A stretch of DNA of 19,858 bases from positions 1,145,219-1,165,076 of the forward strand of contig CP070751.1 in assembly GCA_020348445.1 (NCBI GenBank), in the 5' to 3' direction. Position numbers and translations under genes: made by a program. Under the pieces are notes generated by a model. That model did no database searches. It had not been told where the DNA came from and worked only from the letters and a program-made list of their open reading frames with translations. Source of the stretch: Thermoplasmata archaeon (GTDB lineage: Archaea; Thermoplasmatota; Thermoplasmata; GCA-020350865). Positions 1-10,788 of the stretch are shown in pieces. The first letter of the stretch is position 1. Every line of letters begins with the position of its first letter.

Positions 1-2337
1 ATTGCTCCAAACGCCATATGAATGCTCTGTCGGAGTACTCTGTGCGCTATTTCCGTAATACATATGGATAACCTTATCAGATGTTGGAGAGAGCCACGGG
101 ATTTTTACCCAAGCAAAAAGCTCACCTGATGTGCTGTTGAAGCTTTCGATTTCGTGATCTAGTCTGACCTGCCCTTGTACAAATATTATGTCGTTTCCAT
201 CAGAACGTGCATCGCTTGCAAGATCTGAATCAGTAAGATTTACGAGAACAGGGAAATCAGCAACACCTCCTGAAACTTTAGAGGAATTTATTGTGATCTT
301 CTTACGATAGCTCCAATCAGAATTATACCAGAATTCAACAGCTTCTTCGATTCCCACAGAGCAAAATAATGTGGAATTCACGATGTTCTTATATGATGTA
401 TTGACCCAATCAGAAGAACGTACTGTAAATGAAATGCGGACCTCATCTATTAAACCTTCCCATGTATCAGTACTATCACTTATACGAAATTCCCTTGAAG
501 GATTGCTCATGTCTTTGCCATCTTTGGAACTTGCATCCTTAAGATTATCTAACTTTCCGTCCATGTAAAAAATGGCAGGACCGTCCCTATCCACAGTCAC
601 CACCACATGGTGCCATTGATCGTCTGCGAGATCAGATACGCTATCTGTATATTCTCTTTCAGAACCATCCCCATCCCCAAAGTACATCCTGAAATCATTG
701 TTTGAATTATGCGCAAAGAAATAATATCCCGGAACATCGCTTGCGGTTCCTCCTTTTTCAGCAATCTGTTGATAACTATGGCTCACTGTTGAATCCAATT
801 GAACCCAGGCTTCTATCGTGTAATCACTGTAGCCGACATCCAAACTCTGCGTGCAGTAATCGTCTCTGTATATATATTCACCTACTCCATCGAAAGTATA
901 AGCACCATCGATTCTGCCATTCTGATAATTTGTGTAATCCATTGAACCGTATGAGTCCAGGTGATTCATATAAGAAGAACTGTCTAGGATGGTACCATCA
1001 TAGTCATCCCTTGGACGCTCATTTAAATGCCATACTCCTCGGAAATCATCATCATACACACATTTGGGATTGGAATGATCACCTGCTAGTGGATTGTTGT
1101 AATACATATAAATTGTTGTATCAACTGTTGAGGAAAGCGAAGGAATACGAACATAAGCCTTTAATTCACCAGAACTTCCGTTATAACTTACTATCTCATG
1201 ATGAAGCCTGGCTCCATCGGCATCTTTGAAGTGAATATCATATCCATCTCCTCTAGCATTAGCAGAAAGATCTGAATCTGTGATGTTGATAAAAACAGGA
1301 AAATCTGTGAGATCCCCTGATACCTGAGAGGAATTTATTGTGACGGTTTTTCGGTTGTTGCAGTCCCCGATACTGAAGAAAGAAGTGGGATCGAGCTGGT
1401 TGTACCACTCTGTTGCGATCCATTCCAATGTACGGTTTATAGTGGAGAAACGCACCTCGTCTATTATTCCCCCAAAGTTCTGAGATGGGGGATCCTGCGC
1501 ACCTAATACAACAGACCAATTGGAGTGGCGAAGAGCACCACTTGAGTCAGTGTCCTGTGTTATCTCGGTGCCGTTGATATAGTATCGTTTAATTGTACCG
1601 TTATAGGTTCCAGTAATATATACCCAGCAGTCCTTTGCCACTTCCTGATAGGAACTTGAGGCTCCTCGAGCCCCAAACTGTAATCTCTTATCTGCAGCTG
1701 AGCTTTCGAAACCAAAAAGAAACTCGTAGCCTGTATCAACGTCATCTCTCTTAGAGATGATTTTTCCATAGTCTTCTAGACTGGTAGCGTTAACATAGGC
1801 CCAGGCTGAAATCGTGATGTTTCTGTGATTTCCATCGCAGAGGCCGAGATTACCCAAGGATATCATATCATCCTCGCCGTTTCCTGTGAATTCCTGACCG
1901 TAGCCGAGCTTACCTGTTGTTTGGGTAGGTGTGAGCAGTTGTGTTCCCCAATTTCTTGCGGAAACCGAATTTTCATAGGGCTCACCAGTTTCATCTAAAT
2001 GATAGACTCCGACAAAATTATTGGTCCATACCTCGTTGGGCTGCTGCTGGTTCTCGGCACTTGAATTACCGTAATACATGTATATCACTGTATCGTTCGT
2101 GGATGAGAGAAACGGCATCTTTATCCAGACGATCAGCCTGCCTGTGGTACTGTTAAAGGTCTCGATCTCATGGGCGAGCTTCGTGTCACCATCAGCACCA
2201 ATAAACATGATGTCATCGCCATCAGATTGTGCATATGTAGCGAGATCGTACAGTGTCATGTCCAAAACCACAGGGAAATCAGATAAATCCCCTGCCACCT
2301 TGCCGGCATGTATCGTGATTTTTTTCCAGTAATCCCA
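1..2337 (-). repeat. Second series of DUF2341 + LamG modules (D about 2337-1365, E about 1360-345, F starting about 325 and running off the window)
   Basis: WDYWKKITI...DFPVVL, NRKTVTINSS...DFPVFINITD and WSYRKKITINSSKV...DFPVLVNLTD starts. LamG ends IIDEVRFST and LIDEVRISF. Confidence 0.9.

Positions 2338-10788: not shown

Follow-up and report, generated by a model that had tools for sequence, protein, structure and literature searches.

The window analysed here, a 19,858-bp stretch from a Thermoplasmata archaeon (sequence CP070751.1 of assembly GCA_020348445.1), carries on its minus strand a giant open reading frame (ORF) of which 3596 codons are present. The product of this gene is probably a surface protein of an archaeal family, in which a cytoplasmic head and a stalked ectodomain lie on either side of a single transmembrane (TM) helix, the C-terminus carries a sortase-type tail and the head is coupled to a KaiC-like ATPase and a winged-helix-turn-helix (wHTH) protein. 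That the gene is not unique and belongs to a lineage-specific, multi-copy family of Thermoplasmatota cell-surface proteins is strongly supported by sequence comparison. The unusual parts of these proteins are the long cytoplasmic head with a tract of Thr-Asn-Gly (TNG) units, the conserved stalk, the combination of a signal-anchor with a sortase-type tail and the KaiC-wHTH cassette; the distal domains are ordinary among giant surface proteins of uncultured archaea.

It is strongly supported that the protein is made without a signal peptide, that about 670 residues remain cytoplasmic, with the polybasic tract at the inner membrane face, and that the single helix serves as signal-anchor. On the outer side, a stalk of three sandwich domains resembling carbohydrate modules stands on the membrane and bears a variable distal part, here made of DUF2341-LamG units in lamin-tail domains (LTDs) and of a DNRLRE domain. 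As judged from paralogues and relatives, the gene in the window would end in an IPEF motif, a helix and a basic tail, and an ArtC-like archaeosortase would cut this tail and substitute a lipid anchor, tying the ectodomain to the membrane at both ends. The ectodomain would contribute to the glycoprotein coat or to the binding of glycans or particles by the cell. The head would cooperate with the two products of the upstream genes, a KaiC-like ATPase and a double-wHTH protein, as gene order, co-occurrence and domain fusion suggest, and this coupling would link the state or the amount of the surface protein to gene expression. In related Thermoplasmatales, an unordered glycoprotein layer is found in place of an S-layer (PMC12448462).

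The giant reading frame and its layout across the membrane

From position 10788 down to position 1 of the minus strand, the window reads as a single frame of 3596 codons without a stop (translation with open ends allowed), and in an open-ended ORF listing it was the sole minus-strand frame across 1..10890. The claim of an earlier note on this DNA that an uninterrupted giant frame, absent from the ORF track, remains open at the edge was therefore borne out; the frame is missing from the default ORF list because this list skips frames running off the source. The ATG at 10788 is the likely start codon, because the closest paralogue opens with the identical MVDLS...CPxCG, and the 34 codons between this ATG and a TTG at 10890 resemble AT-rich non-coding DNA. 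All residue numbers given below are counted from the ATG at 10788, and all features of the giant ORF lie on the minus strand.

The window is a complete contig of a metagenome-assembled genome (MAG) with a completeness of 81.7%, whose 354 contigs are linked by runs of 100 N, and it lies exactly between two such spacers. The gene is still open at base 1, its 3' end being cut, because the contig ends inside a DUF2341 repeat, namely the sixth DUF2341 unit of the giant ORF. DUF2341-LamG units 2 and 3 contain stretches of 300 nt that are 87% identical to each other, and a contig end inside such repeats is a typical assembly breakpoint. The leftward extension that the earlier note had proposed in order to find the stop codon did not reach it in this assembly, in which no other contig with a matching 3' piece was found and the nearest sequences were paralogues at no more than 60-62% identity.

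The position of the contig end within a repeat, the similarity of units 2 and 3 and the fragmented, incomplete MAG are also what an artefact would produce, that is, an assembly that is chimeric or has collapsed repeats, or else a pseudogene in decay whose frame is open by chance. Such an origin is highly improbable, since 10.8 kb are free of stops and architectures of this kind recur in complete proteins of independent assemblies and on closed chromosomes. A chimera in particular is unlikely, because paralogue L003 on contig k13 of the same genome is collinear with residues 14-3596 of the giant protein at 57-62% identity (tblastn) and because complete proteins from other metagenomes (P0158, P0160, P0194) have the identical plan of head, TM helix, stalk and DUF2341/LamG. 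Giant genes of this type break short-read assemblies and are mis-annotated piecemeal, and a profile of stalk and tract would improve the annotation of MAGs.

Only one segment of the protein present is strongly hydrophobic, and this predicted TM helix at residues 667-692 (8713..8790) has a Kyte-Doolittle value of 3.07, compared with 1.54 for the next best segment. It is preceded by 666 residues and followed by 2904 within the sequence present, in agreement with the figures of about 670 and more than 2900 given earlier. The net charge is +43 in the tract before the helix and -52 in the stalk after it, and N-x-S/T sequons number 0 in the 666 head residues and 49 in the outer part. Because of these asymmetries of charge and sequons, and following the positive-inside rule, the head is placed in the cytoplasm and the bulk of the protein outside; the sequence features thus support the topology that the earlier note had assumed, and the C-terminal tails of paralogues, which finish in a helix and RKKRK, are consistent with it. 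Within the helix, the motif [ST]-P-[YF] contains a Pro that all 16 aligned paralogues share, and a short L-G-x-x cap between tract and helix is equally invariant among them.

The zinc ribbons, TPR and LTNG tract that had been described for the head were all recovered. Three Cys4 zinc ribbons are located at residues 14-31 (10696..10749; Pfam Zn_Ribbon_1/DZR and CxxC pairs), 135-157 (10318..10386; Pfam Zn_ribbon_3, invariant among close homologues in the head alignment) and 260-280 (9949..10011; Pfam and head alignment). The best-conserved part of the head is a TPR-like helical domain at residues 312-400 (9589..9855; Pfam, AlphaFold2 (AF2) and head alignment), in which TPR_1 (PF00515) matched residues 334-386 with 32.4 bits against a threshold of 27.8 and the AF2 model placed five helices over residues 312-399 with a predicted local distance difference test score (pLDDT) of about 90. 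Next to the membrane lies the (G-L-T-N)n tract at residues 432-655 (8824..9495), which is composed of 32 units (29 LTNG and 3 ITNG) arranged in blocks of 1-5 and separated by KRKRR-type hexapeptides, and for which no confident AF2 fold was obtained (pLDDT 28-44). This polybasic tract probably lies along anionic lipids or serves as a flexible spacer. Zinc-ribbon TM proteins of bacteria and archaea (Pfam DZR/Zn_Ribbon_1, TcaA-like) likewise combine an N-terminal Cys4 ribbon, a single span and an outer domain, but they are small, possess one ribbon and are devoid of the TNG tract, the conserved stalk, a kiloresidue ectodomain and a C-terminal sorting signal; TcaA gave a weak NCBIfam match only.

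The composition of the head could also be read as that of a membrane-tethered nucleic-acid-binding factor, whose zinc-ribbon and polybasic part would be freed by cleavage in or near the helix, as in regulated intramembrane proteolysis. The Pro inside the helix of all 16 paralogues, the HhH_5 (L004, L010) or SAP (L008) domains that paralogue heads contain besides zinc ribbons, and the KRKRR spacers, which would suit the binding of DNA or RNA, are in line with such a factor. It is nevertheless improbable, as no protease is linked to the loci and no sign of cleavage was observed, as HhH, SAP and zinc ribbons are generic motifs, and as the polybasic tract fits lipid binding equally well.

A further motif, DF[RV]KR[WY], is present near the N-terminus of heads that are otherwise unalignable, both in the window (residues 57-70, about 10579-10620) and in L003, L040, L057, L090, L072, L046, L054 and L071. 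As a docking site for the KaiC cassette it was considered and dropped, since it is only loosely tied to the cassette and absent from the syntenic orthologue L018.

Extent of the family and its C-terminal tails

About 20 loci of the same genome share tract, helix and stalk according to tblastn, and a motif scan yielded 18 ORFs of 993-4370 residues with at least four TNG units, besides further fragments; all 18 have the order tract, TM helix and IDGxFxDW, and their helix starts 10-15 residues past the tract. In total the family covers about 134 kb, or 2.6% of the assembly. Tandem copies are common, with three each on contigs k8, k13 and k343, and the mean column identity in the stalk alignment of the paralogues is 40%. 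Heads are between about 70 and over 1000 residues long, with up to about 3100 in the atypical L002, and some of them contain, apart from the HhH_5 and SAP domains mentioned above, a KaiC-like domain (L007, L011). The distal parts interchange among DUF2341-LamG, FG-GAP, LTD, DNRLRE/CBM96 and He_PIG.

Beyond this genome, a profile search with helix and stalk returned 657 representative clusters at E<=1e-30, almost all of them from uncultured Thermoplasmatota, and 2437 when E<=0.001 was allowed, and at least 344 relatives were found in species-representative genomes, including some on closed chromosomes. Nearly all relatives are from MAGs labelled Thermoplasmata, Thermoplasmatota, Methanomassiliicoccales or Methanobacteriota. 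Among 301 genomes sampled evenly across the phylum, 33 have the family (24 of 138 genera); several taxonomic families carry it in all their sampled members, and no copy was found in the largest, well-completed families. Since it accounts for about 2.6% of the assembly and occurs in every sampled member of several families, it is probably a main surface component of uncultured sediment Thermoplasmata, which have large genomes and unknown envelopes. The source annotations of the relatives are generic ('DUF2341 domain-containing protein', 'lamin tail domain-containing protein' or 'hypothetical'). The earlier note had suggested a search across Thermoplasmatota for proteins with zinc ribbon, TPR, LTNG and TM helix; the searches made here, with the TNG motif within this genome and with helix and stalk beyond it, revealed a large family with varying ectodomains. 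This family does not appear to have been characterised before: neither the literature nor the curated profiles of Pfam and NCBIfam were found to cover the head with the TNG tract, the stalk, the pairing of signal-anchor and sortase tail or the KaiC-wHTH cassette.

In each of the 14 complete paralogues, the sequence closes with IPEF or IPEY followed by a hydrophobic helix and an RKKRK basic cluster; among paralogues and relatives, the hydrophobic stretch is 14-24 residues long. A regular-expression scan detected about 17 such tails genome-wide, of which 15-16 belong to the family, and a like tail is present in most complete relatives elsewhere, including P0158, P0160 and P0194 with their DUF2341-LamG ectodomains. 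With the PEF-CTERM model TIGR03024, the best tails scored 22.4 and 19.5 bits against a cut-off of 23, and four of eight tails gave no match. By its likeness, the tail of complete family members is a candidate PEF-CTERM-like sorting signal. Archaeosortase C is the enzyme assigned to PEF-CTERM, which it recognises (PMC5244752, citing Haft 2012). In the genome, ArtA (149 bits) and a second sortase are encoded, the latter having ArtC as its best model with 53.8 bits against a cut-off of 100. Of the 301 sampled genomes, 24 have a strong orthologue of the second sortase; every one of these carries the family, and none was found in the 268 family-negative genomes, counts that are phylogenetically non-independent. 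The complete family members resemble the PEF-CTERM/archaeosortase C system (TIGR03024/TIGR03762) in their P-E-F motif, hydrophobic helix and basic cluster, and the sortase that co-occurs with them has ArtC as its best model at a score below the cut-off.

The family differs from PEF-CTERM proteins at the other end, where 70 to more than 1000 cytoplasmic residues precede an uncleaved-looking signal-anchor, whereas the substrates of sortases usually begin with a signal peptide that can be cleaved off. Both ends of the mature protein are probably anchored in the membrane, because the sortase would swap the tail for a lipid anchor while the N-terminal signal-anchor remains. Such two-ended anchoring is implied when a protein has both a large N-terminal domain in the cytoplasm and a C-terminal signal of the sortase type, and we know of no description of it for archaeosortase substrates.

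Some members of the family and other giant proteins of the genome deviate from this plan. The 3915-aa paralogue L002 (G000:C1:2657441-2669188) has three predicted helices and a signal-peptide-like start, and consists of about 2860 residues of He_PIG/Glucodextran_C/CARDB/LTD, a helix, a short cytoplasmic loop with a TNG tract, a second helix, the stalk and an IPEF tail. An inverse plan was observed on contig k306 (G000:C1:3137498-3153037), where a 5179-aa protein carries an N-terminal signal peptide, FG-GAP/LamG/DUF2341 domains and C-terminal zinc ribbons, and where an adjoining ORF with open 5' end, a fragment of 2271 residues, is likewise ribbon-terminated; zinc-ribbon cytoplasmic parts can therefore be found at either end of giant ectodomains. 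L029 (LJNI01000151.1) and P0160 were located on contigs binned as 'candidate division TA06 bacterium DG_78' and 'Candidatus Altiarchaeales archaeon WOR_SM1_79', and these contigs are probably mis-binned because the spread of the family is otherwise confined to Thermoplasmatota.

Stalk and distal domains of the ectodomain

The conserved stalk at residues 697-1235 (7084..8700) comprises three beta-sandwiches, A, B and C, which were delimited by the family alignment, AF2 and VIA-align; the AF2 model has a mean pLDDT of 80. The stalk had no Pfam match, and a sequence search against PDB sequences gave no match either. In structural superpositions with VIA-align, domain A (residues 697-873) resembled DOMON/CBM9 domains in its fold, with the gamma subunit of ethylbenzene dehydrogenase (2ivf_C) at Z 11.6 and a root-mean-square deviation of 3.6 over 164 aligned residues, and with 4jpq at Z 10.7. 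The DOMON-like unit claimed in the earlier note is therefore matched at the level of the fold only and not by a sequence profile. Domain B (residues 875-1015) is sialidase-CBM-like and superposes on the N-terminal carbohydrate module of Bacteroides sialidases at Z 13.5, and domain C (residues 1019-1235) on CBM74 of Sas6 at Z 12.9 and on the C-domain of glucodextranase at Z 10.9. While VIA-align resolved single domains, Foldseek with the whole three-domain model gave diffuse multi-domain matches only, and a feature search of the ESM Atlas gave no usable match. A relation of the stalk to the Glucodextran_C region of paralogue L002 was also considered and rejected, as no sequence relation was detected (hhalign probability 0.2). 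The predicted folds of carbohydrate modules are no more than suggestive of a role in the surface coat or in the binding of glycans or particles.

The DUF2341, LamG, DNRLRE and LTD units named in the earlier note were confirmed by Pfam and NCBIfam profiles. Behind the stalk, an acidic, beta-rich region at residues 1251-1400 (6589..7038) matched no Pfam or NCBIfam family. It is followed by three units of DUF2341 and Laminin_G_3 at residues 1421-2440 (3469..6528), which separate the first strand of a lamin-tail domain from the second, by the main part of this LTD at residues 2432-2513 (3250..3495) and by a DNRLRE/Disaggr_repeat domain at residues 2525-2693 (2710..3216; Pfam and NCBIfam), which is CBM96-like in paralogue L003. 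The remainder, residues 2816-3596 (1..2343), consists of DUF2341-LamG units 4 and 5 and the truncated sixth DUF2341, after the first strand of a second LTD at residue 2800. In total, DUF2341 (PF10102) reached 190.7 bits in six stretches and Laminin_G_3 (PF13385) 301.5 bits in five, both above the gathering threshold; LTD (PF00932) scored 43.5 bits against a cut-off of 34.3 and covers profile positions 10-74 only, and the DNRLRE model NF033679 was matched over positions 2-164 of 164 with 94.7 bits against a cut-off of 34.

The LTD thus appears to be split. Its strand 1, INEVMADP, lies at residues 1402-1420 (6529-6585) and the rest, including the second strand WVEIYN, at residues 2449-2513, and the gap between INEVMADP and WVEIYN amounts to about 1030 residues with three DUF2341-LamG units here, in comparison with 3 residues in the contiguous LTDs of paralogues. 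A like strand spacing was found in paralogue L001 (residues 2921 and 3955). The second INEV strand at residue 2800 (about 2353-2390) predicts that the remainder of that LTD lies in the absent C-terminus. Kiloresidue arrays of DUF2341-LamG nested in the loop of a lamin-tail domain are a point of specialist interest.

Multi-kiloresidue arrays of DUF2341 and Laminin_G_3 also occur in giant surface proteins of uncultured archaea and bacteria, which are annotated 'DUF2341 domain-containing protein' in MAGs from Hodarchaeales, Thorarchaeota and Kiritimatiellae, with 32-40% identity to the arrays of the window. The examples checked (P0167, P0185), however, have ordinary signal peptides or are fragments, and the motif scan detected no IDGxFxDW stalk motif, zinc-ribbon pairs or IPEF tail in them. 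A literature search showed that giant LamG proteins of DPANN archaea have already been described.

The KaiC-wHTH cassette and the surrounding genes

Directly upstream of the giant ORF and on the same strand, a 253-aa protein with two winged-helix domains (10953..11714, minus strand; Pfam HTH_24/HTH_20/HTH_11) is encoded, and its gene overlaps by 4 nt with that of a 299-aa KaiC-like ATPase (11711..12610, minus strand; NCBIfam KaiC_arch_3), which matched PF06745 with 140 bits against a threshold of 26.6. The Walker A motif GxxGxGKTT of the ATPase is intact, and its residues G29, G32, G34, K35, T36 and T37 are invariant across eight orthologues. The order KaiC, wHTH, family gene on the same strand was found again at L018, L040, L057, L062, L068, L072 and L090 from different MAGs and in the k343 cluster of the same genome. 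KaiC orthologues (E<=1e-50) are present in 21 of the 301 sampled genomes, every one of these 21 being family-positive, and in almost all cases the wHTH gene is next. The pair is followed by a family gene in G150, G129, G190 (twice), G094 (twice) and G004; no family gene is next to it in G156, G074, G056, G080 and at one locus of the genome studied here. Furthermore, the heads of paralogues L007 and L011 and of P0002, P0204, P0260 and P0263 from other samples open with a KaiC-like domain whose Walker A has lost GK[ST], and upstream of both L007 and L011 lie a wHTH gene and a gene for an active KaiC. Because of this gene order, the exclusive co-occurrence and the domain fusion, a functional association of the family with the KaiC-like ATPase and the wHTH protein is likely. 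A complex prediction for the KaiC-like ATPase with the head gave a score of 0.19, compared with a mark of 0.32, and speaks neither for nor against binding.

Archaeal KaiC-like ATPases have reportedly been proposed as signal-transduction hubs by Makarova, Galperin and Koonin (mBio, 2017). The cassette resembles these ATPases, and ArlH and CirA-D, in that a single-domain ATPase with intact Walker A is paired with a wHTH protein and a membrane protein, and in that inactive KaiC/MEDS-like domains are fused to partners; it differs from them in that the partner is a giant surface protein of the sortase type. The family offers a concrete candidate partner for the many orphan archaeal KaiC-like ATPases, on the strength of gene order, exclusive co-occurrence and domain fusion.

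A purely structural role for the protein is possible, though doubtful. The protein would then belong to the disordered glycoprotein layer of the S-layer-less Thermoplasmata, head and tract would only fasten it to the inner leaflet or its copies to each other, and the KaiC-wHTH pair would be an ordinary transcriptional regulator with no signalling through the protein. The multi-copy tandem clusters with swapped distal domains, the strongly charged tract without confident fold next to the membrane and the fact that most family genes have no adjacent KaiC gene are in favour of such a coat. The pseudo-KaiC domains, which are fused to heads beside active KaiC genes, argue on the contrary for physical contact over mere co-regulation, and the heads, with their length, their variability and their many interaction modules (TPR, HhH, SAP), go beyond the needs of an anchor.

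The explanation preferred here, a family surface protein with a sortase tail and a KaiC/wHTH-coupled head, has to be set against several observations that weigh against it. About half of the KaiC-wHTH pairs examined have no family gene next to them, and a KaiC-like gene is found within 3.5 kb upstream on the same strand in only 13 of 76 family genes with complete 5' end; the link therefore concerns a subset of the family or acts in trans. The syntenic orthologue L018 has neither the first ribbon nor the FRDF motif, so that not all parts of the head are needed. With respect to the surface, the folds of carbohydrate modules are no proof of glycan binding, and the tail of the window gene, whose C-terminus is absent, is taken from its paralogues. 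In their scores these tails narrowly miss the PEF-CTERM cut-off, and the sortase falls far short of that for ArtC, which indicates likeness and not membership; nine family-positive genomes have no strong orthologue of the second sortase with the query used, and the co-occurrence counts carry the non-independence noted above.

The earlier note had proposed a receptor-like adhesin controlled from inside the cell. This proposal was supported in part, namely in the arrangement of head and ectodomain on the two sides of the membrane and in a link to cytoplasmic regulators at the genetic level; adhesion and contact between head and KaiC are conjectural, and control from inside competes with sensing from outside and with mere co-regulation. 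It is rather unlikely that the family constitutes a class of transmembrane receptors, in which the doubly pinned, lectin-like ectodomain would report its occupancy or mechanical state via the zinc-ribbon/TPR or pseudo-KaiC head to a KaiC-like hexamer, which would in turn set the double-wHTH factor. If this were true, the about 20 paralogues with their swapped distal domains would form a panel of surface sensors wired to KaiC hubs.

A second KaiC-wHTH pair, with 57% and 37% identity, was observed on contig k1 (G000:C1:138635-146152). Its flanks encode three small proteins in tandem, each having a zinc ribbon at the N-terminus and a single TM helix, as well as a 567-aa protein that has a signal peptide and a helix at the C-terminus. 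This setting suggests a wider association of the KaiC pair with zinc-ribbon membrane proteins.

The window contains no tRNA genes. Upstream of the KaiC-like gene, a 117-aa ORF without assigned family is located on the minus strand (12880-13233). It is followed by four divergent genes on the plus strand, which encode a TFIIB-type zinc-ribbon protein (13347-13811), an OB-fold protein (14106-14627), a 580-aa TPR protein (14771-16513) and an 866-aa STAND NTPase with TPR repeats (17123-19723).

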